A DNA stretch of 64,000 nucleotides, taken from NCBI GenBank assembly GCA_963845755.1, contig CAWJTV010000033.1, forward strand, positions 320,001 to 384,000, given 5' to 3'. A program made the position numbers and the translations under genes. Positions 7,201 to 54,712 of the stretch are shown in pieces. Position 1 is the first letter of the stretch. Each line of letters starts with the position of its first letter. Source of the stretch: an uncultured Planctomycetota bacterium. Its GTDB lineage: Bacteria > Planctomycetota > Planctomycetia > Isosphaerales > Isosphaeraceae. The notes beneath the pieces were generated by a model. It made no database searches. It was not told where the DNA came from and worked only from the letters and a program-made list of their open reading frames with translations.

Positions 7201-7649
7201 TGATGGTTTGAGCGGCAATCTGAATCTGAAGGAGTAAAACCGGCTCCTTGGGCAAGACCAATGGAATGACGGCAAATGGTGCCGCACGCATCGCGTGCAA
7301 TCGCGCCAGTTGTCCAAGCTCAGGGCGGCCACCCTTCCGTTTACCTTGAGCTCGCCTACGAGATCGAAACAGGACCTGGGAAAAGGCCAGTGATCCCTCA
7401 ACAACATGTTGTTGTTGAAAACTTGCCTAGAATCCTCCCCCCTTTTGGTCCGCCGGGCTTGTCGCATCGGGATGTTGCCAGGCCTCAAACCGGGATGTGC
7501 TGGAACTCGCGACATGTTTCATCCCTTTCAGGAAAAAGTTCCTCTCTCCATGATTCACGGGCGGATATGCCAGGAATCAGCACAAACTTCCGCCCGCCTC
7601 ATCGGCATGCGATAATCCCGGATGATCCCCTAACCTCATCTCGAACGAA

Positions 7650-8244
7650 ATGAGGAGGAAAGTTTGGATACCGAACGAGCGGGGTGACCTGACCGCCATC
7701 CTCGACGAGGCCCGCTCCGGCGGCGCCGACGCCCGGGATCGGCTCGTCCGGGCCATCTACGGCGAGCTGCGGCGCACGGCCGGCGGGCTGATGCGCCACG
7801 AGCGGCCCGGCCACACGCTCCAGCCCAGCGCCCTGGTCCACGAGGCCCTGCTGCGGCTCCTCGATGGCGACGCCTTGGCCGACGTCCCCAACCGCCGCTA
7901 TCTCTTCGCCGCCGCCGCCCAGGCGATGCGCCAGGTCCTGGTCGACCACGCCCGGCGCCGCCGCGCCCGGAAGCGCGACGGGAATCGCGTCCGAGTCCCC
8001 CTGGACCAGGTCCTGGCCGGCTTCGATGAGAAGGGCCTGGACGTGATCGCCCTCCACGAGGCCCTCGAACGATTGGCACAGGATCATCCCCGGCCGGCCC
8101 AGGTCGTCACCCTCCGTTTCTTCGGCGGGCTGTCGGTCCCCGAGGTCGCCGCGACCCTCGCGGTCTCGGACACCACCGATCGAGAGCGACTGGCGGTTCG
8201 CGCGGGCCTGGCTGAAGGGCCAGCTCGGAGGAACACCGGGATGA
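7650..8244 (+). CDS. ECF-type RNA polymerase sigma factor (TIGR02999 type)
   Basis: IYGELRR.A..LMRHERPGHTLQPSALVHEA, AAAQAMRQVLVDHAR and LRFFGGLSVPEVA..L...ESDWRFARAWL; stop overlaps next ATG (ATGA 8241-8244). Confidence 0.92.
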
Positions 8245-11200
8245 ATCCGGATCGCGGCCAGCGGGTCTACACCATCTTCGAGGCCGCCCTGCGGTGCGAC
8301 CCGGCGGGCCGTGCGGCCCTGCTCGACACGCTGTGCGGCGACGACTCCGAGCTGCGCCGAGGTCGAGCGGCTCCTGGCCGACGACGAGCGAGCCAGCCGG
8401 GACGGCTTCCTGACGGACCCGCCCCCGCCGGGCCAGGGCGCTGAGGGCTCACCGGCCCGGGCTGCTCGGCTTGCGCGGCCTGGATATCCACATCCTCTGC
8501 CCGCACTGCCGCAACCCGATCGAGCTGGTCGGCCTGGCCGCCGCCGACGTCGTCTGCCCCGCCTGCGGCTCGACGTTCCGACTGGAGCGGGAGTCGACGG
8601 CGTCCTGGGGCCTCGCGCGGGGACCAGCGCCGGCTGGGCCGGTTCGAGCTGATCGAGGCCGTCGGGGTCGGGGCCTTCGGCACCGTCTACAAGGCCCGCG
8701 ACCCGCAGCTCGACCGCATCGTCGCCATCAAGGTCCCCCGCGCCGGCAACCTGCCACGCAGCGAGGACCGGGATCGCTTCCTGCGCGAGGCCCGCAGCGT
8801 CGCCCAGTTGCAGCCACCCGGCGATCGTGCCGGTGCACGAGGTCGGCGAGCACGAGGGCCTGCCCTACCTGGTCAGCGATTCGTCCAGGGGCCTGACCCT
8901 CGCCGACCTGCTGACGCGGCCGTCGCCCGCCGCCCCGCGAGGCGGCCCAGTCTGGTCGCCGCGGTCGCCGACGCCCTGCAGTACGCCCACGAGCAGGGCG
9001 TCATCCACCGCGACGTCAAGCCCTCGAACATCATGCTCGACGACGAGGGCCGGCCGCACCTGATGGATTTCGGCCTGGCCAAGCGGGACGCGGGCGAGGT
9101 CACCATGACGCTGGACGGCCAGGTGCTGGGCACGCCGGCCTACATGAGCCCGGAGCAGGCCCGCGGCGAGGGCCACAAGGTCGACGGCCGCAGCGACGTC
9201 TACAGCCTGGGCGTGCATCCTCTACGAGCTGCTCACCGGCGAGCTGCCGTTCCGGGGCAACACGCGGATGCTGCTGCACCAGGTGCTGCACGACGAGCCG
9301 CGGCCGCCGCGGAGCCTGAACGACCGGATCCCGCGCGACCTGGAGACGATCTGCCTGAAGGCGATGGCCAAGGAGCCGAGTCGGCGGTACGCGACGTGCA
9401 CGGGATCTGGCCGACGACCTGCGGCGCTTCCTGAAGGGCGAGCCGATCCAGGCGCGGCCGGTGTCACGGATCGAGAAGGCCTGGCGCTGGTGCCGGCGGA
9501 ACCCGATCACTGGCGGTGGCCAGTTCCTTGGCCATCGCGGCATTGGTGGCCGTGGCCGTGGTTTCGCTCGACTTCGCCGTGGAGCAAACAAAGACGAAGA
9601 ACCAGATCGAGAACCTGGCGAACGACCTTCAGTCGTCGCTGAACAAGTCGGACGAGCCTAGCCAGTGAACTCAAGACATCACTGAAGGAATCAGAGCGGC
9701 GGCTGGCGGCCCTCAACTTTGAACGTGGTCAAACTGCCTGCGAGAAGGGTGAGATGGGTCCGGGCCTGCTGCGGCTGGTCGAGAGCTGGCGGTCGGCCAT
9801 AGCGGCCGATGACCCAGGCTGGCGACATACCGCCCGAGCCAGCCTATCTGGCTGGCAGCGCCATTACACCAGACTCAGGGCGGTTTTTCACCAGGTGTCG
9901 ACAGATTTCGTCCTTCAGCCCCGATGGCAAGACCGTGCTCGACCTGGAACGTCGACAGGACGGCGCGGCTGCGGGATGCGACGACGGGCCGGCCCATCGG
10001 ACTCCCCTTGACTCATCAGGATAGGGTCTCGGCGGTGGCGTTCAGCCCCGACGGCAAGACCGTAATCACCGGGAGCCGAGACAAGACGGCGCGGTTGTGG
10101 GACGCGGCGACGGGCCGGCCCATCGGACTCCCCCTGACGCATCAGGGCGAGGTCTGGGCGGTGGCATTCAGCCCCGACGGCAAGACCGTTCTCACCGGGA
10201 GCTACGACAAGACGGCGCGGCTCTGGGACGTGGCAACGGGCCGGCCTATCGGACTCCCCTTGCCTCATCAGGACCGGGGTCGGGCGGTGGCGTTCAGCCC
10301 CGACGGCAAGACCGTACTCACCGGGAGCGAGGACAAGACGGCGCGGCTGTGGGATGCGACGACGGGCCGGCCCATCGGACTCCCCCTGACGCATCAGGGC
10401 GAGGTCCAGGCTGTGGCGTTCAGCCCCGACGGCAAGACCGTACTCACCGGGAGCGATGACAAGACGGCGCGGCTGTGGGACGCGGCGACGGGCCAGCCCA
10501 TCGGACTCCCCTTGCCGCATCGACGAAGCGGTCTGGGCCGTGGCGTTCAGCCCCGACGGCAAGACCGTACTCACCGGGAACGCCGACAAGACGGCGCGGC
10601 TGTGGGACGTGGCCACCGGCCGGCCCATCGGGCTTCCCCTGACTCATCAGAGCGCGGTCGATGCGGTGGCGTTCAGCCCCGACGGCAAGGCCGTACTCAC
10701 CGGGAGCTAGCGACAACACGGCGCGGCTGTGGGACGCGCCGACGGGCCGGCCCATCGGACCACCCCTGACGCATCAGGGCCGAGGTCCAGGCGGTGGCGT
10801 TCAGCCCAGACGGCAAGACCGTGCTCACCGGGAGCTACGACGAGACGGCGCGGCTGTGGGACGCGGCGACGGGCCGGCCCATCGGGCCTCCCCTTGACAC
10901 ATGAGGGCCGGGTCCATGCCGTGGCATTCAGCCCCGACGGCAAGACCGTACTCACCGGGAGCGGGACAACACGGCGCGGCTGTGGGACGCGGCGACGGGC
11001 CGGCCCATCGGACTCCCCCTGACGCATCAGGCACGAGGTCAGGGCCGTGGCGTTCAGCCCCGACGGCAAGACCGTACTCACCGGGAGCGAAGACAAGACG
11101 GCGCGGTTGTGGGACGCGGCGACGGGCCGGCCCATCGGGCCCCCCCTAACGCATCAAGGCCGAGGTCAGGGCCGTGGCGTTCAGCCCCGACGGCAAGACC

Positions 11201-43124: not shown

Positions 43125-44333
43125 GTGATCGGCGATAACCGTACTTCGATCGATATCGCGGAGCATTGCGTCTCCGTCTGCCCGTCGGCCGTCCTGCGCG
43201 TGGCCGTCCTGTTCAGCGGTGGCGAGGCGCCGGGAATGAACGCGCTGCTGCGTGCGATCGTGCGCGTGGGCATGAATCGATATGGAGGGGACGTGATCGG
43301 CGTGAAGGAGGGATTTGCCGGTCTGGTGCGGGCGGTCCGACGGGTCGAATTGGGGCACTGGAGCCTTGCAAGTCTCAGGGACGACATTGATACTCACGAT
43401 GGCTTGCGTGGCGTCGGGCGTGCGTCTCAGGAATTGGTCCGGCTGGACCGGGCCTCGGTGAGCGGGCTGCTGGGCCGCGGTGGCATCCTGCTCGGGGCGT
43501 CGCGGTGTCCCGAGTTCCATGAGCCGGTGGTCCGCCGGCAGGTGATCGATCTCTTGAGCTCCGTGGGGGTTCGTGGCGTGATCGTCTGCGGGGGAGATGG
43601 CTCGATGGCCGGCGCGGACCGGCTGGCCGAGGAGAGCGCGTTGCGGGTCATCGGCATCCCGGCGACGATCGAGAACGACCTGGCCGCGACCGAGCCGTCG
43701 CTGGGTTTCGACACGGCGGCGAACACGATCACCTGGGCGGTCAGCCGTTTCACGGACACCGAGGCCCAGCATCCCCGAATCCTGGTGCTCGAGGTGATCG
43801 GCCGCCACGGTGGCGACCTGGCGCGGCTGGCGGCGCTGGCCTCGGGAGCGGAGGTCGTCGTCACCCCGGAGCACGGTCCGCTCACCGAGGCCGGGATGGA
43901 GGAAATCGCCGTGCGACTGGGACGCGCGATGCACCGAGGCCGGCGACAGGCGATCGTGCTGGTGGCCGAAGGCGTCGCCCTGGACCCGTCGCTTGCCGGC
44001 CGCGACGAGACGACGCCAACGGTCTGGCTCGCCCATCAGCTCCAGGCGTTCTTGCGAGGGGAGGCGCGGGGATTCCCAGACCTGGAGGTCCGCCCCTGCA
44101 TGCTGGGCCATCTCCAGCGCGGGGGGGCGCCGTCGGTCGCCGACCGGATCCTGGCCGCCCGGTTTGCCGGCGCGGCCTGGAAGGCGATCGCCAGCCCCCG
44201 CGAACGGAGCGGCGTCCTGGGAGTGCGCGGCGGCGAGCTGTTGCTCCAGGACTTCGCGGTCCTGCCCGACCCCGAACGCACCGAGGCCGCCGAGCAGCTC
44301 GACCAGCTTCAGAAGGATGTGAGTCATTGGTGA
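43125..44333 (+). CDS. pfkA: 6-phosphofructokinase (PfkA) family protein, divergent active site
   Basis: SGGEAPGMN, GGDGS, PATIENDL, GFDTA, EVIGR and LGHLQRGG. Confidence 0.88.
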   Translation: MIGDNRTSIDIAEHCVSVCPSAVLRVAVLFSGGEAPGMNALLRAIVRVGMNRYGGDVIGVKEGFAGLVRAVRRVELGHWSLASLRDDIDTHDGLRGVGRASQELVRLDRASVSGLLGRGGILLGASRCPEFHEPVVRRQVIDLLSSVGVRGVIVCGGDGSMAGADRLAEESALRVIGIPATIENDLAATEPSLGFDTAANTITWAVSRFTDTEAQHPRILVLEVIGRHGGDLARLAALASGAEVVVTPEHGPLTEAGMEEIAVRLGRAMHRGRRQAIVLVAEGVALDPSLAGRDETTPTVWLAHQLQAFLRGEARGFPDLEVRPCMLGHLQRGGAPSVADRILAARFAGAAWKAIASPRERSGVLGVRGGELLLQDFAVLPDPERTEAAEQLDQLQKDVSHW

Positions 44334-44417
44334 GGTTGTCCGGTGTAGGGTGGGCGAAACCGCTCTACTAAACCCGGATACCGTTCTCGGACGGTTCCTT
44401 GATCCCGGGAGACTGAG

Positions 44418-45452
44418 ATGTCCGACAGCGAACGCATTCACGTCGAGGTCGCGGTCGCCCTCGTGGCGGACGCGAACCAGCGGGTGCTCTTGACCTTGAA
44501 TCCCGGCTGGGGGAGCTTCACGCTCCCCATGACCCGCCGGCGCCGGGGCCGGCAGGGGAACGAGCCGCCGTCGCGGGCGGCCCTCCGCGCCGCGGCCGAG
44601 ACGCTGGGGACTCCGGTTCGTTTGAACGAATCGCACCGCGGCCCCAAGCCACTCATGGCCCGGCTCGAATCGGGCCGGGAACTGGTGGACAAGATCTACG
44701 CCTTCCATGTATTCCACGTCGAGCCTCATCCCGATTTCGCCGACCGACTCCGGATCCCTCAATCGCACCTCTGGCTCTCCCCGCACCTGGTCCTGTCGGG
44801 AGTCTACGAGCCGGTCTCCGAATCGGCGCGATTCATCCTCCGCAACGCACTGGCCGATTTCGACATCCCTGCGCGCTCGCAGAATACCAGCGTCCTGATC
44901 GCGGAGCGCAACGACCCGGCGCGAGGCCGGCTGTTCCTCGTCCGATGGAACCCGAACTGGGGTTACGCCCTGCCATCGAAGCGCTGGGAGCCGCCCGACC
45001 CGGCGAAGGCCGATGACCCATCGGCCACCGCGATGGCCGGCGCCGAGCGCATTGCGCGGGACGAGCTGGGCCTGGAACCGGGCAAGGACGTGACGCTCAC
45101 TCCGGCGAAGTCTCCCGAATACGCAACCCACGGGGTCAGCGTCACCGAGTCGGCTCCCGCGTTCGGAGAAGCGACGGACTATCATCATCGTCTCTTCGAC
45201 GCCCAGCTCCACCATATCGAGAAGCTCCAGTCCACCCAGCCGCTAGCCTGGATCAGCGAGGAGGAGATCCACCACGGCTGGACGTCGGCGTCTCAGGGCG
45301 AACCGGGTTCCCCATCAGGACATGCCGCCCGGGTCTCCCGCACCACCTATGAGATCCTGATGCACCTGGGCCGGATCGGCGAGACCGTTGACCCGGAGCT
45401 CGAGGTCATGGAGAAGTACTGGCTCAACGAGTTCGGCGGTGGCGTGGGATGA
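44418..45452 (+). CDS. Tandem degenerate Nudix-fold protein
   Basis: Two similar units: RVLLTLNPGWGSFTLP...EPPSRAALRAAAETLG and LFLVRWNPNWGYALP...AMAGAERIARDELG. Confidence 0.65.
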   Translation: MSDSERIHVEVAVALVADANQRVLLTLNPGWGSFTLPMTRRRRGRQGNEPPSRAALRAAAETLGTPVRLNESHRGPKPLMARLESGRELVDKIYAFHVFHVEPHPDFADRLRIPQSHLWLSPHLVLSGVYEPVSESARFILRNALADFDIPARSQNTSVLIAERNDPARGRLFLVRWNPNWGYALPSKRWEPPDPAKADDPSATAMAGAERIARDELGLEPGKDVTLTPAKSPEYATHGVSVTESAPAFGEATDYHHRLFDAQLHHIEKLQSTQPLAWISEEEIHHGWTSASQGEPGSPSGHAARVSRTTYEILMHLGRIGETVDPELEVMEKYWLNEFGGGVG

Positions 45453-45524
45453 CGAGGACCCGGTGGGGATCGTCATGTGAGAGAGGGTGAAAGTGAGGGT
45501 TCTTCCCGCTGTCGGAGCGTGGCC

Positions 45525-46980
45525 ATGCCCGTTTCCTGGACCATCAAGGCCCGACGTCACCTACGGCAAGGGCTGGCCGAAGCCCTGTGCAGGGAAAGTC
45601 ACAACCTGGGAAACCCCGGGCCTGAGTCGCAGCGATACTTCGGCGTGCTGGAGAGGACCATGGACAATCTCAGCGAGGTTCTCGCGGTCACCTTTCCGGG
45701 AAAGTCGGTCGTCGTGCAGGACCAGGTGATCGGATTCCGGCGCAAAGCAGGCCAGTTCGTCCTGATGGTCGAGGTCTTCGATCCGGGGGATGAATCGTGG
45801 TCGGGTGAGGTCAGTCGGAGCGGCCCGTACGTGGTCAAGATCGGCCCTACGGAGTTCCTGGAGCGGGAGCATCGCGGCTGGGCCTGCTGCCGGCCGCCGG
45901 GCCTGCGGCACGACCTGGTGTTCCTCGACCTCGAAGGCATCCACGAGGACGGGGATCGCGGCCCGCTCATCAGCCTGGTCTATGGCGACGCGCAGCAATT
46001 CCTCGGCGTCGAGACCACGACCACGCTCGAGGCCGCCGCGCTCGAGGCCGTGCGGTTCGGCGTGCCCACGGTCGCCTCGATCGGCTTTGTCATCGTCGCG
46101 CTTTACGAGCGGATCGGACACTTGCTCTACGGCCAGTCCTTCATCGACGACCCGGCGCGGGCGGACTATGCTTTCGACCTCCCCAAGCTGACCGACCGCA
46201 TGGCGCAATGGGATTTCGAACCCGTCGTGCCAGGCCGCCCGCCGCGACGTCAATACGCTGGCTCGGAGCGGCCCCGAGCAGTTCCTCGACCCGATCGACT
46301 ACCTCGACTACGTACGTCAGCTCGTCCCCTGGAAGCTCGCGGACGGTTCGACCCAGGCTCCCACGGCCGACCTGGAGGCGATGCGGCAGCTCGGCGAGCC
46401 CGTGCCGACGCGCGCCGACCTGGTCCCCCGCCTGCTCCGCGGATGTGCCCACGGCGACCTGCACGGGCGCAACGTGCTGGTCGGGATCGTGCGCGAGCAG
46501 GCCCTGTGGCCGACGGTCTTCGACTACGAGGACATGGGCCCGTGCAACCTGATCGGCTGGGACTTCGTCAAGCTCGAGACCGAGCTGAAGATCCGCGCCT
46601 ATCTCGAGGTCTTTGCGGGGGTGGTGCCCAGCGCGTTCGTTCAGAGCGTGCAGAAGTTCGAAGTCGCGCTCGACGCGCGTACGGAGGAGTGTCATGCCAA
46701 CCGAAGCTGGCCGATGGTCGGCGAGGCGGCGACCCCGGCCGATCGGCTCCGCGTCATTCTCTTGGAAGTCCGACGGATGGCCGTGCGCCACCTCGGAGAC
46801 AACGTCGGCCGGCCCAACGACTGGCTGGAACAGTATTACTTCCTGCTGGCGTGTTACGGCATCTGGACGGGCAAGTTCGACAACCTCCAGCTCCGCGAGC
46901 GAATGGGCGCCTTGATCTCGGCCGGAGTCGCCACCGCCCGGCTGAACTGGCCCCGTCTTGAATCACGAATTGCACGTTAG
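45525..46980 (+). CDS. APH/phosphotransferase-like kinase (TCAD9-like), frameshift near 46225
   Basis: YVVKIG...ERE, HGDLHGRNVLV, FDYEDM and WDFVKLETELK. Confidence 0.75.
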
Positions 46981-47086
46981 CCGCCTCTCCTCACCGCAGA
47001 AACTGCTAACTGAAGGAGAAACGGACCGGACCCATTCACCACAGAGTCACAGCGCGGGCGAGCCGCAACCAACCAATCAAAAGAGA

Positions 47087-47349
47087 CTCACCACAGAGTC
47101 ACAGAGGACACAGAGAGGAATTTTTCGATGCCTTCTGTTGATGCAACCTCTTGTGTCTCGAGACGTTATGAAATCATGCACGGTGTACAAGATTCTCGAA
47201 CTTAGTAGTACAGAGCACACAGAGAAGACCATAACGCATTGTAATTTCATGAGTGTACAGAGTCATGTTTCCTCTCATGACGTCTTTTCGAGAATCAGAA
47301 TTCACAACTGTTTCTGTCTTCTCTGTGCTCTCTGTGGCTCTGTGGTGAG
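47087..47349. repeat. CACAGAG-type inverted-repeat element (MITE/REP-like), 263 bp
   Basis: 30-bp arms 47087-47116 and 47320-47349 match 27/30; AT-rich interior; extra partial arm at ~47035-47052. Confidence 0.8.
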
Positions 47350-47386
47350 ATATCCGAACCCGATCTGTTCTCCCAAGGACAATCCC

Positions 47387-48262
47387 GTGAGCGCACCAAT
47401 CTCAACCCCGACACTCGAAGCCACCCTCAAGGTCCCGTTCCCGAGCTATCACCGGCCGCTGGCCTGGGCGCATCAGTGGCTTTCGAGCGGCGATCCCGAG
47501 CGCAAGAGGGTCGCGGTCGAGTTGCTCCGGACGCTGTACCAACGGTATGACCACGCCGTGGCGGTCGGCCAGGAGCTGGTCCTGGCCTTGATGGAGAGCG
47601 GCAGGGAGGCTCAGCCCGAGGCCGAGGCGACCCTCCAGGGGATCGATGCCCGGTTTGCCAAGCTGGACGAGGAGCTCCTCTGCCGGTGGGGCCGGTTCTA
47701 CAAGGACCATGGCGACCGGTACCTCGGGCTGCCCTGGCTGGTCACGGAGATCCCGCCCAACCCCGAGGAAGCGCGGCCGTATTACCTCAGGTCACTCGAG
47801 AAGTACGAGGAAGCGTTTCGCATCCGTTCGGGGCATTACCCGGGGATCAACACGGCCACGCTCCAGTTCTTGCTGGGCACGCTGGCCCGGCCGGCGGGCA
47901 CAGCGTCATCCCCTGAGGGCAACGAAGTCGCCAAGGCACAAGCGATCGCGAGCCGGCTACTCGAAGGGCGCGAGAAGTGGTCGGAGTTGACCCCGAAGGA
48001 TCGCACGATCTGGCACCCCGCGACGGCGGCCGAGGCGCACTTGCTGCTCCAGGAATGGGACCCGGCCGCCCGCGAATACCGCGTTGCGATAGAGAACAGC
48101 CGGGGCGCGCTCCGTGACATCGAAAGCATAGGACGTCAGGTTTGTCTGATCGTCATGGGCTGGAGTCGTGTCGGCGTAGCGATCCCCGAGCCGTTCACCC
48201 AGCTCCATCTCTTATTCCCCAGCGTGCCACGGGAACTCATTATCCTATTAACACAATTTTGA
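47387..48262 (+). CDS. TPR-S / DUF4071-like (MAP3K TRAFs-binding-like) helical repeat protein
   Basis: GTG after AAGGA; ELLCRWGRFYKD, YEEAF...HYPGINTATL and WHPATAAEAHLLL. Confidence 0.75.
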   Translation: MSAPISTPTLEATLKVPFPSYHRPLAWAHQWLSSGDPERKRVAVELLRTLYQRYDHAVAVGQELVLALMESGREAQPEAEATLQGIDARFAKLDEELLCRWGRFYKDHGDRYLGLPWLVTEIPPNPEEARPYYLRSLEKYEEAFRIRSGHYPGINTATLQFLLGTLARPAGTASSPEGNEVAKAQAIASRLLEGREKWSELTPKDRTIWHPATAAEAHLLLQEWDPAAREYRVAIENSRGALRDIESIGRQVCLIVMGWSRVGVAIPEPFTQLHLLFPSVPRELIILLTQF

Positions 48263-48320
48263 CGATGGGGTCCGCAATGTCGCGCACACCAGGGGAACTC
48301 CGCAGCAGGAGGCCGAGAGG

Positions 48321-49044
48321 TCATCCACGTGAGGCGAACCGCCTGAGGTCATCGGCCATCTGACCGAGACGGTCTGCCAGATCACGGGGCGCTTTGAGAC
48401 ATTGCCGAAGAGTCGCAAGGAGTTGTTCGATCTCCTCGAGGGTGACCTTGACCGCATAGGCCCCGGGGGCCGGGCTCGCGTTGAGGAACTCCCATATGGC
48501 CCTCTTCCAACCTTCGTCACCCAGGAGGGTGCACACCAACGCCAGGTCGGCGGCCGCGTATTCATCTTTGGCCCTCGGGCCGCTGCGCTGTCGCCGGACT
48601 TCGTCTCTGGCCGTCTCCAGCTCCTCGCGCAAGGCCAGGTTCGACAACCTTGGCCGCATCGTCGTGGATCGCCTCAGGCTGGATGTAAACGCGCGCGACC
48701 AGCCGTTGCACCATGTTGTAGGAGTTGATGATCCCATAGCCTGATTCCCGCCGCTCGATTTCGTACCCCGCGTCATAGGCACGGGCGGATTTCTCGAATT
48801 CCCCCCACCTGCGAAAAATCCCGCCTTTTGTCCCGAGGATATAGGCCAACTGGGCGGCGATCTCCATCTCCGAACGACCGAGCCTTTCCCCGGGCTCGCG
48901 GGACTGTTCGAGTCGCTCGAGGGCGGTGCGAAGGTGGCCTTCGGCCTGCTCGATCAACGCGACCGCCCGCGGGAAGTCCCCGCGGTCGCGGGCATTCATC
49001 GCGTCCGACTTCAGTTTTCTTGCCAGATCGATGACATCAGACAT
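48321..49044 (-). CDS. TPR-like helical protein (frameshift near 48650)
   Basis: GTKGGIFRRWGEFEKSARAYDAG...SYNMVQRL...YAAADLAL; start overlaps upstream stop by 8 nt. Confidence 0.7.
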
Positions 49045-52000
49045 GATTGAGGCTCCCTCGGGACGCGATGGTATCGAGGACCTTTCCGATTTCGAGGGCG
49101 AGGGCCGCGTACTCGGTCCCGGAATAGTCCTGCAATCGGTCCCGGAGATTCCTGCCGACCTGTTCGAGCGCACCCAGGTGGGGGTCGTTGGGGTCGGATT
49201 CTTGCTTGGTGAGTTTCTCGGTCAATTTGTACCGGCCGTCCAGGTAATACCAGGCCGCCAGCTCATGCTCGATCGCGGCCTTTTTGATGTGCTCGGCGAG
49301 GGACTCGGCGAACAGCACACTCATCTGTCCCGCTTCGGCCACCGCGGGGCCGGCGATCGCCTTGGCCCCGCTCAAGAGGAGCTCCTGGACGGGTCGTCCC
49401 CCCGGCTCTCGGCGCCATTCGATGGAGTCGGCGACCACCTGGTAGGTGCGCCCGGCGAGAGCGTCGCGCCGGTCCCCAGAGACGGCTGATTCGGATCGAA
49501 TTCCGCCAGGCGGTCCTTGAGGTTCTTGAGTTCCTTCAGGCTGAACCGCGTCGGCTTGAAGAAGTCGAAGAGGGCCCGCCTCGCGGGGTCGCCGTCCAGC
49601 TCCACGGCCTTGGCGGGGTCGCCGTCCGGATCGTCCGAGTAGAAGATGAAGATCGGATCGGTGTCATTGACCGCGAGGCGAACCCCGATCTCGAAGAAAA
49701 CGTTGGGGCGCCAGCCGGTCCAGTCGGCGATGCAGACCCTCGTGCAACGGATGGCCGGGTAGAGTCGTTGCTCGACCAGTTGGGGCGACGCGCAATCGAG
49801 CCGTGAGACGAGCCTGGTCGCCTCGCCGAATCGACCTTCGAGCTTGCCCTTCAAGGTTTCGTTGACTTTCTTGCCGTGATCGGGGTCGAACCATTGGAGC
49901 AGCAAGACCTGCTCTTCGGGTTCGCGGATGCCCGGCGTTTCGCCGAGGCGCCTCACCGCATCGAACGCGGGGAGATCGAGGTAGGCATCCGGCTGGAGTC
50001 TGAGGGCATCGTAGCCGGCTTCAAGAGCGTTGGCGATCTGCTTGATCTCCTCTTTTCTGGTGCGAATCGGGATGAGCGAGGCGAGGTTGAAAGGGAGGGG
50101 GTTGCCGCCCGGTTCGTCGTTCGTGAGCGTGATCGTGACGCCCCGCCGGACCGCCGAGCGAATCCCCAGGAACAGCATCACCGCGCAATCGAGCCCCGTG
50201 ATGTCGAACACCGCGAGGTCGCATTCGCAGAGGGCGCGGACGGTCCGCTCGTAGGCCGCCGAAGTCGCGAGCGCCTCGGTGGCCAGGATGACCTCGGGGA
50301 CGGTCTCGATCTCGGGACCCGCGACGGTTCGCGAACCCAATCGCTTCTTGAGCTTCTCGAGCGCCTGCGTGACCCGTTCCTCCTGAGTCATCTCACCGGG
50401 AGGGTCCCCTCTCCCTTTGACGAGGACACACCCGATCCGGCCCGCGAAATCCAACCGAAGCGGAGGGATCTTGCCCAACGCGGCCTCGAAATCCTCGGTG
50501 CTGTACAGACGCTTTCGGGTCCAGTCCTCATCCTGCCGGTCCGGCCGCCACTCCGCACGGAGCGGCTCGCACGCGGCCCAGATGTCGGGGAATCCCTGCG
50601 CGAGGGCCGGCTTCGGTCCGTGTCGGATGATGGCTTGATCCACCTTCATGGGCTTGCCGGTCCGGCCCTCGAAGCGGGTGTGACCGACGATTGATGCGAC
50701 AGCGTCGATGACCTTGCCCTTCTCGCTTGCCGTCAGCTTCGGACGAGGCCATAGGCTCGCCAGTTGCGTCCTGAGGCCTTCGATCAGCCCGACTCTTTCC
50801 GTCAGCCTCGTCTCGTCGGTATCCGCGGCTATCTTGCCTTCGCGGTCGAAGATGCGGAAGTGGAGCAACTGATTCACGGCGGCTACGACGATCAGATTCT
50901 TACCCTCGCTCGGGATGTCTCGTGCGTCATTCACCGAGGACATCAATCGTAGGTCGTACCCCTCGAAGCGGATGACATACCCCTTGAGCGTCTTCACCGG
51001 CTCCTCGATCCGACCGGGCTTGTCCACGAGGAGGAACCTCTTCTTGTTGTAGAGGTACGCGGTGATCAGTCTGTTGAGGACGGAAGCCTGCGGGCTGAAT
51101 AACGCCTCCTCGGAACTGTTCAGCCAGATCGTCCCCATCTTGCGCGGGCGTAGGTTCGCGTCCAGCGCCGGGCGCGATCTCGCTCGCCGCCGCCTTGTAC
51201 GCATCGGCGCGGGCCTGCGGCGAGCCACCCTTCTCCTCGACCTCCTTGAGCCGATCAGCGACTTTGCTGAGGGAATGTTTACTCACCTTATTGATCACAT
51301 CGCCATGTTTAAAATCCATAATGCAGAGCCGCATGAGATCGGTGAGCCCACCGTCGCCGCTCCCGGACAGGAACCAGGACCCGATGGACTCGGCCTCGAG
51401 TCCGTCGAGGCGCGTGTCGGTCCAGTAGCCGTCGGACGCCTCCGTGTCGTCCCTGCCGAAGCCGACCGCCAGGATGACGACGTCGAACTCCCGTCGGTCT
51501 TCCCCGCCAACCTGGACGAAGGGCCTCTTACCGGCGACACCGACTTTGATCTCTTTGCAATCACATCGAGGATGGGGCAACCTCTGACCCAGGCGGGATC
51601 GAAGCCGATCCCACTCTTTGTCGAGTTGCTCGACGACTTCCACCGCGTTTTTCGCACTCCAGGGCAATATCGGCACGTCGGCCTGATCGCCCAGCTCGGT
51701 GCTGTAGGGCCAGTCGTAGATATATGGGTGGATATATCGCTTATCGCACCCCCTCTGGAGCCGCATGGTATCCCCGAGCTCCTCGAACACCTGGCATTCT
51801 CGAACGCCCCGCACGGCCGCGGCGGCGGCGGCCGTCATCCCGGCAATCCCGCCCCCGATCACGGCAACCCGGCTCTGGCCGGACAGGATGCCGCCCTTCG
51901 CCAGGGAGTTGACCAGGTTCAGTGCGCGGACCTGCTGGAAGTAGACGGTCACATACCTCGCGAAACAACCCAGGACGTAGATCCCCGGTTTACCGGGTAC

Positions 52001-52066
52001 TCGCATCAGTCGGAGCAGCTCGGTCCGGTGCTCGTCATCGGTCTGAGGTTCCTTGGGGAATGACAT
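49037..52066 (-). CDS. FAD-dependent oxidoreductase fused to two nucleoside-deoxyribosyltransferase/DRHyd-like domains (~1000 aa; two frameshifts)
   Basis: GGAGGGA RBS; VAVIGGGIAG, FDVVILAVGFG, SGSGDGGL; CDLAVFDITGLDCAVMLFLGIR and VCIADWTGWRPNVFFEIGVR. Confidence 0.75.
50676..50961. mobile_element. MITE-like element inserted in frame in a CDS
   Basis: TIRs GGGTGTGACCGACGATTGATG / GGGTACGACCTACGATTGATG (18/21); flanking duplication CTCGAAGC (50668-50675, 50962-50969); 286+8=294 bp. Confidence 0.85.
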
Positions 52067-52435
52067 CCCTCCCTCCACTTCGACATCGAACCTGGAGAAA
52101 CCGGTCGGCCGAGTCGGTCGCGACCCCGGCTCGGTCGAGGGTTCCCAGGTGGGAAAAGACCGAACGCGGGACTGAGACAGGCTGGAAGGAACGGGACAGG
52201 ATGGGTTGTTCGACGGCATGTCCCCGACGCCTCTGCGTTTTCATCCCGGTTCACGCCATGCCTGAAGGATCAGTCTACAAGGTCGATCAGGCCAAGTCCA
52301 TCGCGCGGGGGCCGCATCCCGAGAAATCCGCAAGTGCATTCGAATCGCGATGGGGAAGGTGTACGATGAGCACGTGGCCGCCCCATGCCGAGGGGTGACT
52401 TCGATGCCCGTATCGCGTCGATAACCGGAGGTCCC

Positions 52436-53530
52436 ATGAGTCCCGAAGTCGAGATGACTCAGCCGGGTCGGAGCCGACCTGCCGCACCGATTCCGCTGGT
52501 AGATCGACCCATGGTCGAAGACACGGACATGGTTGAGACGCCCGACGAAATGGCGAATTGGCCGGCGTTGGTCGATCGTCTTCGGCGCTGCAGCGAACTG
52601 ATCAGCCCGGTCTTCCACGATCGCGATGCCGAGGCCAAGGATCACCAGAGATACCATCGACTCCTCACCACCCTGGCTGCCGTCTTCGGTACAGGCGCCG
52701 TCCTGTTCGCGATCCTGCAACTGGCGTATCCGGATCTGCTCGGTGGCACGACCCTGGAGGTCGTCGAGGTCGTGGCCGTGGTCGCGGCGCTCGCCGCGGT
52801 GGTGATGGGCGTGATCTCGGGCCGGCAAAGTCGGTGGCTACTCGAGCGGCATAAGGCCGAGCGGCTCCGGCTGGCCAAGTTCCGGTTCCTGATCGACCCG
52901 GCAACCTGGAGTGACCGCCCGGAGGACGTCGAGCATCGGGTCGCGGCCCTCCGCGCCGAGGTTGACCGCATTCAATCAATTACGTCACGCCAGTTCCGAG
53001 AGTGGACCGAGCAGGAAGATGTGCATCTGGAACCGCATCAGCGGCAAGACCAGCCCACCGGGGAAACGCGCGACCAACTGGTCGACTACTATCGGACCAA
53101 ACGCCTGTTGTTCCAACGCGATATCTTCCGCAGCCGGGCCAAGCGGCACGATCGATGGGATCGTGACAGCCGTCGCCTCGGGCCAATCCTGTTCCTCGGC
53201 AGTGTGTCCGCAGTCCTGGTCCACTTCGGGATCGACCTGTATAACCGGCGGAAGGGGTACAATGTGGACACCACGCCATTAATCCTGCTGGCCGCGGGCT
53301 TGCCCGTGGCCGGTGCCGGCATCCGCACCCTGCGCACGGCGTACGAGTTTGCTCGAAACACCAGTCGCTATCGCGCAAAGTCCGTCGCGCTGGATCGACT
53401 TGACCACATTCTTAAGGAAGAGCAGGATCCTCAGTCAGAGATTCGTTTGTTGGGGTACTCGGAAGAGCTTCTGGAATTCGAGCATCATGAATGGTGCCGG
53501 CTCATGATCGAGGCGGAGTGGCTTCCGTGA
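52436..53530 (+). CDS. Double SLATT (DUF4231-like) membrane protein
   Basis: GGAGG RBS; two 2-TM hairpins, followed by WLLERHKAERLR and by SRY...L...EELLEFEHHEW respectively. Confidence 0.8.
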   Translation: MSPEVEMTQPGRSRPAAPIPLVDRPMVEDTDMVETPDEMANWPALVDRLRRCSELISPVFHDRDAEAKDHQRYHRLLTTLAAVFGTGAVLFAILQLAYPDLLGGTTLEVVEVVAVVAALAAVVMGVISGRQSRWLLERHKAERLRLAKFRFLIDPATWSDRPEDVEHRVAALRAEVDRIQSITSRQFREWTEQEDVHLEPHQRQDQPTGETRDQLVDYYRTKRLLFQRDIFRSRAKRHDRWDRDSRRLGPILFLGSVSAVLVHFGIDLYNRRKGYNVDTTPLILLAAGLPVAGAGIRTLRTAYEFARNTSRYRAKSVALDRLDHILKEEQDPQSEIRLLGYSEELLEFEHHEWCRLMIEAEWLP

Positions 53531-53584
53531 GACGCACGGGGTATCGAGTTTGAGCGATTTCGCTCAACCAGAAAGCGGTGGACC

Positions 53585-53872
53585 TTGACATACAGACCTC
53601 GTCCGATCGATACGATGCAAGTCGAACTGACGCCCGAGCTCCTCCAACTCGTGGAACGATTGGCTGAGAACGTCCATGACGTCTGGGCAGCCAACCGGCT
53701 GGCGGCAGGCTGGAGACTCGGCCCCAGCCGGGATGGCGACCTCAAGCAGACCCCCTTGCTCGTGCCGTACGCGGAACTGCCCGAGTCGGAGAAGCACTAC
53801 GATCGCGACCTGGCACTGGCGACCCTCAAGGCGATCCTGGCGCTGGGATATCAGATCGAGCCAATAAAATGA
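53585..53872 (+). CDS. Stand-alone RyR domain protein
   Basis: YRPRPIDT..VEL...LAENVHDVWA..RL..GW..GP.RD..LK.TPLLVPYAELPESEK.YDR. Confidence 0.93.
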   Translation: MTYRPRPIDTMQVELTPELLQLVERLAENVHDVWAANRLAAGWRLGPSRDGDLKQTPLLVPYAELPESEKHYDRDLALATLKAILALGYQIEPIK

Positions 53873-53911
53873 GGTCCAGGATCACGCAGCAGGGAGCGAA
53901 GCGAGACTCGC

Positions 53912-54712
53912 GTGGCACCGAAGGAACACTGCATGTCTGGTGCTCTTGACAATCTCGTTGGTGGTCTCCACAAGATGATGATCCCTGACATCCTCGACCA
54001 TTCCGGAGATACGGCGATAACTCGGGGTATGTGGTGGAAACGTGGCACCCTGCTCGCGGGGCTTCTCGCGGTTCCGACGCTCGGGATCGGTGACACAGGC
54101 ATAGAACGAAAGGTTCAGCCATTGGGAGGCCAGAAGACACGCGCCGCAACCGAAGGCAGGAAGTTCTCCCACGAAGAGACCCTCCGCTGGATTGGGGAGA
54201 ACAAAGCGTGGCGGCTGGCACGGAAGAACCGGCCGATCTGGGCCCGGCCGGTCGAGCCGGAGGAGGTCGGCAAGGAGTTCCAGACGGCCGATCACGTCAG
54301 GGAGAAGGCCCCCGCTGGCGTTTGGCTCTGTGTGGGAGTGGTCGGCGAACCGTGGTTCCAGGCTTTCGAGAAGATCGAAGGCAAATACGAGCGCGACGGC
54401 CAGGAAACCCGGACCTTCGCGTTCGATGGGAATCCACGGACCTACCGGAAGTACAAGCCCAAGGGGACGATCCGCAACTGGGTTGCGCAGGTCAAGGGAC
54501 CCGGCATCGCGGGGTTTTATGTCCGGCCAGGGTACGATCCCGCCCGCCCGCTCTATTCACCGCCCGGCGGATACGTCGTCAAGGACGACGTGGCGGATCC
54601 CTATCGCGACGAGCCGAAAGACGTCTGGCTGGTCCAGCAGTCGCTGTTCGAGAGCACCTATGAAATCATCCGGGATCGACGACCGGGCAAGGCAACCCCG
54701 AAGCGTCGATGA
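53912..54712 (+). CDS. Hypothetical protein, PGDYG-like internal duplication, possible signal peptide
   Basis: Two units AGVWLCVGVVGEPW...KYE and PGGYVV....DVWLV....FESTYE; start uncertain. Confidence 0.55.
   Translation: MAPKEHCMSGALDNLVGGLHKMMIPDILDHSGDTAITRGMWWKRGTLLAGLLAVPTLGIGDTGIERKVQPLGGQKTRAATEGRKFSHEETLRWIGENKAWRLARKNRPIWARPVEPEEVGKEFQTADHVREKAPAGVWLCVGVVGEPWFQAFEKIEGKYERDGQETRTFAFDGNPRTYRKYKPKGTIRNWVAQVKGPGIAGFYVRPGYDPARPLYSPPGGYVVKDDVADPYRDEPKDVWLVQQSLFESTYEIIRDRRPGKATPKRR

Follow-up and report, generated by a model that had tools for sequence, protein, structure and literature searches.

A rare planctomycete operon family with a kinase-TPR-S core and a predicted role in nucleotide-based conflict

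Gene content of the block

A 64,000-nucleotide stretch of DNA (hereafter the window; G000:C33:320001-384000) from the genome of a planctomycete soil bacterium (G000, 14.3 Mb in 49 contigs) carries at positions 43125..54712 a block of eleven genes in three units, encoding a phosphofructokinase (PFK) together with Nudix, kinase, TPR-S, SLATT, RyR and flavoprotein products, and sequence comparison identifies the block as one form taken by a rare operon family of planctomycetes. The nearest named homologs come from metagenome-assembled planctomycete genomes of Isosphaeraceae type, which suggests that G000 belongs to that family. Every open reading frame (ORF) of the three adjacent units was found at the coordinates given by an earlier sequence-only reading of this DNA, and most of its domain calls held, with Pfam, PADLOC and NCBIfam confirming PFK, Nudix, a TCAD9/APH-like kinase, TPR-S, SLATT and RyR. 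The GC content of the block (0.59-0.69) matches that of the window, at third codon positions the first unit has a GC of 0.81-0.86 and the remaining two 0.74-0.83, and the block is flanked by glgX and CYTH genes.

The first unit, on the forward strand, begins with a gene for a PfkA-type PFK (43125..44333; Pfam E 4.7e-76), which when aligned to the B. subtilis PFK 4a3s has an ATP-type signature and an insert of approximately 35 residues after the first helix. A tandem Nudix-fold protein is encoded next (44418..45452; NUDIX profile E 3.4e-5), with two Nudix-fold halves in its AlphaFold model and degenerate boxes in both. The following gene (45525..46980, with a frameshift near 46225) specifies an APH/choline-kinase-fold kinase of TCAD9-like type (E 2e-9), a name said to come from a paper on MoxR-vWA ternary conflict systems. 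An intact 491-aa ortholog of this kinase is present in a genome of the same genus (G001), the structural model of this ortholog has the APH/choline-kinase fold (Z 14.9), and the catalytic His-Gly-Asp loop and metal Asp of the kinase are intact. The unit ends with a TPR-S gene (47387..48262; profile E 4.5e-13), which stands as first called except that its start lies near 47387 rather than at 46958, a genomic repeat occupying the interval.

The third unit, also on the forward strand, encodes a double SLATT membrane protein (52385..53530) matched in two stretches (profile E 1.3e-15; NCBIfam SLATT_1 57.6 bits against a cut-off of 41) and containing three hydrophobic segments above 1.6, a stand-alone RyR (Repeat12) domain (53585..53872; profile E 7e-33) and a PGDYG-like protein with a start that by eye resembles a signal peptide (54029..54712). 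The PGDYG assignment is weaker than first proposed, as there is no direct Pfam hit and support comes from 33% identity (E 2e-16) to a protein of locus L020 that does have one; a protein atlas gave a weak lead of low recognition for it. Between these units, on the reverse strand, lie the flavoprotein gene and a gene for its TPR-like partner.

The frameshift polishing suggested by the earlier reading was carried out against intact relatives, which placed four breaks: one in the kinase (approximately 46225), two in the flavoprotein (approximately 51167 and 49451) and one in the TPR-like partner (approximately 48640). An independent soil contig (depth 2.8) has one additional base at 49450, and the flavoprotein frameshift near 49451 is therefore probably an assembly error; no contig spanned 46225, 51167 or 48640 among the matches listed for soil run X1, in which coverage of the block is patchy. 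A scan of the block for promoters and terminators performed no better than chance. Clustering of the genes does exceed chance, since kinase, TPR-S and RyR each occur in one of 691 20-kb tiles of G000, all in this block; TIR/DUF4062 genes occur in 20 of the 691.

The operon family and its phosphofructokinases in other genomes

Relatives of the tandem Nudix protein (67, with 31 aligned) led to 29 genome loci and 30 metagenome loci. Genes were called by a simple scorer, the operon regions of 26 loci were scanned with Pfam, and tallies were made with hidden Markov models (HMMs) built from these loci. The 29 genome loci contain an active Nudix gene in 22 cases, TPR-S in 17, the kinase in 16, TIR/DUF4062 in 14, and RyR and LysR in 12 each, with a TrkA-RyR type protein (seven), PFK (four) and PGDYG (three) as rarer partners. 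At 11 further loci found through the kinase, one of them (G744:C7) first reached via its PFK, TPR-S adjoins the kinase in every case, with TIR/DUF4062 at six, RyR at four and Nudix at three. Of 587 kinase representatives, the best 150 include fusions to TPR-S (98), Nudix (11), RyR (two) and PGDYG (two), and at L028/L029 PGDYG is fused to kinase-TPR-S. The adjoining TPR-S at 11 of 11 loci and the 98 fusions indicate that kinase followed by TPR-S is the constant part, and not the PFK, which had been proposed as leader and is present at only four of the 29 Nudix-found loci. Around this part the cargo varies and includes TIR-STAND-TPR, TIR-trypsin, RyR-TPR-S-cyclase, TrkA-RyR, SLOG-SLATT and Nudix-RelA/SpoT proteins, the last seen at L011:18964-20514 directly 3' of RyR.

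The block genes thus co-occur elsewhere, as had been predicted, in operons rich in TIR, STAND, SLOG, SLATT and RyR. The proposed association of the first and third units is borne out by single operons containing both PFK-Nudix and double SLATT-RyR: at L009/L123 the co-oriented order is PFK, Nudix, TIR-STAND-TPR, kinase, TPR-S, an unknown gene, DRHyd-TPR, double SLATT and RyR, and at L087 it is PFK, Nudix, a short gene, double SLATT and RyR, with LysR and kinase 125 kb away. In G000 the orphan LysR ortholog of the system has an apparent frameshift near its end. A conserved protein of approximately 370 aa with no Pfam hit, by eye Nudix-like and then cupin-like, usually lies immediately after TPR-S (L009:16737-17852, L011:17212, L087:9426, L092:12777, L128:11563, L131:12246); it is absent from the window.

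Searches for the kinase found it in 5 of 401 genomes of the phylum and in 15 of 121 of the family, counting G000. Such patchy spread, together with the rapid swapping of TIR/STAND/SLATT/SLOG cargo, argues against a LysR-controlled metabolic or stress regulon concerned with nucleotide and sugar-phosphate damage and unrelated to invaders. Such a regulon would fit the frequent occurrence in metabolism of divergent LysR genes, Nudix proteins, small-molecule kinases and PFK, the glgX and CYTH genes bordering the block, and the failure to find the kinase in the viral contigs or plasmids searched, but we regard it as very unlikely.

A search of 401 genomes of the class for the PFK gene, scoring four candidates in each (E<=1e-85), shows it to be similarly restricted, with copies in five genomes and always at loci of this kind. 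Four copies lie directly upstream of the tandem Nudix gene and the fifth, in G744, approximately 5 kb upstream of Nudix-TIR-STAND genes, from which unrelated genes separate it. In a 23-row tree of sequences of at least 200 residues, these five PFKs and those of L011, L029 and L042 form a clade of eight (support 100/99). We take Gly at position 104 without Lys at 124 to mark ATP-type PFKs, and Asp 104/Lys 124 to mark pyrophosphate (PPi)-type enzymes. All eight clade members have the ATP-type signature; of the other rows, L010 set aside, all 14 carry Lys at 124 and 12 carry Asp at 104, so the housekeeping PFKs of the hosts look PPi-type. The window PFK shares with PfkA of B. subtilis (4a3s) and E. 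coli (1pfk) its fold, ATP-type signature and most ligand residues, with two conservative changes, catalytic Asp to Glu and sugar-loop Met to Ile. It differs from them in the 35-residue insert, in the variable catalytic and sugar-site residues of its clade and in being an extra copy confined to conflict-type loci. An apparent PFK-Nudix fusion, P0039, is not a genuine one, a deletion having left 67 PFK residues.

A second association of PFK with such genes was seen at L010, where a PFK unrelated to the window clade is fused to TIR and heads a Nudix operon (7338-9602). Its best relatives are TIR-PFK proteins in 117 of 120 cases (P0349-P0468), named from several phyla, and in this family the sugar-binding loop is altered and the TIR Gln/Glu are conserved.

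Change at the locus was apparent from comparison with G001, in which PFK, Nudix, kinase, TPR-S, RyR, SLOG-SLATT and PGDYG are all co-oriented between flanks shared with the window and no flavoprotein unit is present. DNA similarity between the two genomes ends at 47859 and resumes at 54048, except for a weak RyR match, and synonymous divergence (dS) is 1.44 for RyR, 0.82 for the whole of TPR-S and 0.37-0.67 for the other shared genes; the similarity gap and the RyR dS suggest that the middle of the block was swapped as a cassette. These data bear on the possibility that the block is a decaying remnant, in which a formerly intact TIR-STAND operon was broken up and is now eroding, the PFK is an ordinary glycolytic extra that hitch-hiked once, and the units are independent hotspot cassettes. 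Such an origin would account for the cassette swap between 47860 and 54048 and the divergent RyR, the lost LysR linkage, the lost active Nudix (of which G001 retains a fragment), the scattered active-site changes and the L039/L040 deletion in PFK, and the flavoprotein unit being unlinked at other loci. It is nevertheless quite unlikely, as every gene is under purifying selection (dN/dS against G001 0.12-0.34 for system genes, 0.15-0.27 for three flanking controls), no member of the PFK clade turned up outside such loci in the 401 genomes, the ATP-site Arg and GG[DE]GS motif are intact in all eight clade PFKs, and the PFK-TIR fusions form a large second family.

Predicted function and relation to known immune systems

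We favour, with moderate confidence, a reading in which the block supplies signal handling and effectors to a predicted conflict system, probably anti-phage, based on an NAD-derived nucleotide. The genes are real, conserved and rare, and as a set apparently undescribed, the window copy being TIR-less and partly rearranged. From the gene content, conservation and motifs given above we infer a series of steps, of which the first, second, third and fifth draw on the known biochemistry of the families. Upon infection, an NAD-cleaving enzyme would produce ADP-ribose or a cyclic isomer. The earlier suggestion that the signal comes from the PFK, kinase or NDT modules was not upheld by the relatives, in which the proteins evidently making the signal are of TIR/DUF4062 type, which the block does not contain; in the relatives the enzyme would be a TIR/DUF4062-STAND-TPR protein, and for the block its place may be taken by unlinked TIR genes or by that DRHyd-like repeat of the flavoprotein which is intact.

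In the second step RyR would bind or open the cyclic form. Phage RyR domains bind or cleave 2'/3' cyclic ADP-ribose (cADPR) (PMC13232231; 10.64898/2026.06.04.730250), with roles assigned in the former to RyDEP residues H75, W78, H100 and D117, and six of eight phage homologs are described there as binding without cleavage. The window RyR has H31, W34 and D73, T56 replacing the usual His, and compared by spacing with the RyDEP residues reported there three of the four positions match. HxxW is kept by 20 of the 21 RyR domains of the family loci, and the Asp by 19 of 20. Third, the box-less Nudix pair would bind the nucleotide, which in relatives would be cleared by the separate active Nudix lost here. 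The motif RExxEE, which we take to be the active Nudix box, is present in none of the 40 first-type or 16 second-type domains of window-type proteins, against 34 of 35 separate partner Nudix proteins, and hydrolysis is not expected of the window protein because the catalytic box is degenerate in both domains. The tandem Nudix is thus probably a ligand binder, judging from its motifs; Nudix domains act as ADP-ribose sensors in NrtR (PMC9503650, as far as its accessible text goes).

The same genes could instead serve self-protection or clean-up, RyR, Nudix and kinases disposing of ADP-ribose-type signals and recycling ribose so that neighbours or the host survive TIR activity, in which case the operon would limit rather than execute immunity. 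RyR, as glycosidase or sponge, followed by Nudix is a logical degradation chain, and control by LysR, the persistence of the core without TIR in the window, L005, L028 and L058, the nucleotidyltransferase-NAD kinase fusion adjoining the LysR of the system in L009 (5757-7118) and the ribose and sugar 1-kinases among relatives of the kinase fold fit such a role. It is unlikely, however, given that the window Nudix domains are not expected to hydrolyse and that these operons also encode SLATT, SLOG-SLATT and RCK-RyR membrane proteins as well as trypsin and cyclase fusions, all of which resemble outputs.

Returning to the signal-handling and effector reading, the fourth step would be phosphorylation by the TPR-S-gated kinase of a small sugar-bearing molecule, perhaps most plausibly the signal or its product, tuning or ending the signal. 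In the fifth, SLATT at the membrane and the flavoprotein would be swappable effectors. In a sixth, the ATP-type PFK may couple the signal to sugar-phosphate metabolism. An ATP-dependent PFK opposing a reversible PPi-dependent one could spend ATP, and the window PFK might form such a shunt against the PPi-type PFKs of the host or, where the sugar site is eroded, act as a nucleotide-binding regulator. In its fullest form, TIR-made cyclic ADP-ribose would be opened by RyR, read by the pseudo-Nudix and modified by the APH-like kinase, and PFK would act as an immune output of a new kind, rewiring or draining central metabolism; TIR signalling would have recruited PFK-family enzymes on two occasions. 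This host circuit is offered tentatively, as a doubtful extension. No part of the system is more distinctive than the PFK link, and none less certain; the idea of PFK as an immune component is testable because an ATP-type PFK is confined to TIR/RyR operons and a separate large TIR-PFK family exists. The operon also suggests what bacterial RyR domains may do in cells, their binding of cADPR having until now been demonstrated only in phage counter-defence, and it brings in the kinase as a candidate for the enzyme that modifies or terminates ADP-ribose signals.

Several observations weigh against the favoured reading. At the locus itself there is no TIR, STAND, active Nudix or LysR; the LysR ortholog of G000 lies 105 kb away, alone among housekeeping genes (C33:468967-469963). 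Independent reads bear on one of the four frameshifts. As signs of decay, the G001 Nudix gene has one internal stop and the window RyR is without the phosphate-binding His. Matches of the kinase model to choline, aminoglycoside, methylthioribose and sugar kinases (Z 13-15, root-mean-square deviation approximately 4 A) are at the level of the predicted fold and indicate no substrate. Locus counts are not independent, as contig ends truncate many of the loci and some are nearly identical to one another, and the Nudix loci L013 and L027 have none of the partners. As to PFK, six of the eight clade members have at least two catalytic or sugar-site changes, each different, with these positions fully canonical in two (L011, L029), and in L039/L040 the PFK is reduced to a 67-residue stump, both further signs of decay; the single clade implies a single recruitment; and in G246 a TIR-PFK gene occurs by itself.

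Judged by gene membership, the block belongs to none of Thoeris, Lamassu and CBASS, and no system in PADLOC accounts for the gene set, as the earlier reading had anticipated. No Thoeris TIR (ThsB) was found by Pfam, NCBIfam or PADLOC in the 13 block ORFs, nor by HMM over the window; nearest to a TIR in the block is the weak TIR-like/DRHyd repeat of the flavoprotein, and a Thoeris-type effector, a class that includes SIR2-SLOG, Macro-TM and SLATT proteins, is present, by its sequence, in the double SLATT. Thoeris type VII combines TIR with SLATT and type VIII TIR with a CMP-hydrolase-like protein, according to the accessible text of bioRxiv 10.64898/2025.12.03.692087, and with these and type I the relatives share their likely signal, TIR-made ADP-ribose isomers, and SLATT, SLOG and NDT-fold partners. 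The window differs in being without TIR, the relatives in having TIR-STAND-TPR sensors, and the family in its kinase-TPR-S, Nudix pair, RyR, LysR and PFK, which have no Thoeris counterpart in that text. With RyDEP and RyR Tad proteins the window RyR shares the PF02026 domain and His/Trp/Asp spacing, but it has Thr at the position of His100 and is chromosomal, beside host immune genes, rather than phage counter-defence (PMC13232231, same portion).

FMO is a known Lamassu effector type (PMC12663957, accessible text), and the window flavoprotein shares the N-terminal effector domain of LmuA; it differs in its DRHyd-like repeats and TPR-like partner and in being without the LmuA C-terminal domain, LmuB SMC and LmuC. 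In the 13 block ORFs there was no match to the C-terminal half of LmuA, no hit to LmuB, and no Pfam, NCBIfam or PADLOC hit to a CD-NTase/SMODS cyclase. MoxR AAA+ and vWA genes are absent from the block and were not seen in the operon cores scanned. Burroughs et al. in 2015 reportedly described SLOG/DRHyd/TPR-S/SLATT nucleotide-centred conflict systems with the same domain vocabulary as the block. MoxR-vWA ternary systems resemble the family in using APH-like kinases and Nudix as effectors and in planctomycete enrichment (PMC7159879, in whose accessible main text PFK and RyR do not occur), but the block is without the MoxR, vWA and SMODS components of these and of SLOG/TPR-S conflict systems. 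No paper on this gene combination, or on PFK with TIR immunity, was found among the accessible texts searched, including PMC7159879, PMC8195603 and PMC9503650, though Burroughs 2015 or the supplements of the bioRxiv preprints may list the neighbourhood; nor was a glycolytic enzyme found as an immune component in the literature searched.

The flavoprotein cassette and repeated elements

The flavoprotein gene (49037..52066, reverse strand, with frameshifts near 51167 and 49451) encodes a Lamassu-FMO-like effector domain (PADLOC LmuA E 6e-74, profile positions 5-286 of 827) followed by a degenerate and an intact NDT/DRHyd-like repeat; coverage of the LmuA profile in the intact relative P0070 is 6-407. 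The call of two NDT domains is sustained for repeat 2 (hhalign probability 97 to NDT/DRHyd-like domains of L009/L057, Glu kept) and is weak for repeat 1 (15-27, without the Glu). A profile search of the PDB with the flavoprotein alignment matched an FAD-binding motif alone. The start of the TPR-like partner gene (48321..49044, reverse strand; TPR-S E 0.0037; frameshift near 48640) overlaps the flavoprotein stop, and the two are fused in at least two relatives (P0074, P0084) among the matches listed. Of 120 long flavoprotein homologs, 73 have the C-terminal DRHyd-like part, and other homologs fuse the flavoprotein domain to STAND or HAD. Membership of the unit in the core, as first assumed, was not borne out: it is a separate cassette that does not adjoin the core at the four other loci whose flanks were covered (L008, L075, L133, L134; L117 and L118 were left out). 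The L008 copy is a second, distant FMO-like domain in G000 (C13:30418-31386), without system neighbours.

The 434-aa ORF considered for TPR-S was rejected because its N-terminal 143 codons are a genomic repeat. This non-coding intergenic repeat (46975..47390, unstranded) has 33-nt inverted arms (47087-47119, 47317-47349), gave 81 blastn pieces in the genome and belongs to a common family of intergenic repeats whose inverted arms are nested.

Within the flavoprotein gene lies a 286-bp miniature element with terminal inverted repeats (50676..50961, reverse strand), which with an 8-bp duplication adds 98 in-frame codons; the protein atlas gave nothing usable for this 98-aa insert. The element is ISKra4-derived and inserts in frame into genes. 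Its end exactly matches the 21-base termini of a 1,421-bp ISKra4-family element (NCBIfam E 1e-60) present in three G000 copies with 8-bp duplications (C11:365214, C11:558125, C27:240631). Other sites in G000 are C36:107551, C37:79109, C11:1400407, C34:764511 and C36:341747, and these five diverged copies (40-54% amino-acid identity), one of them broken, lie within open frames of unrelated genes, of kinase-WD40, MMPL-type transporter, WD40 and, by eye, HEAT-like types.

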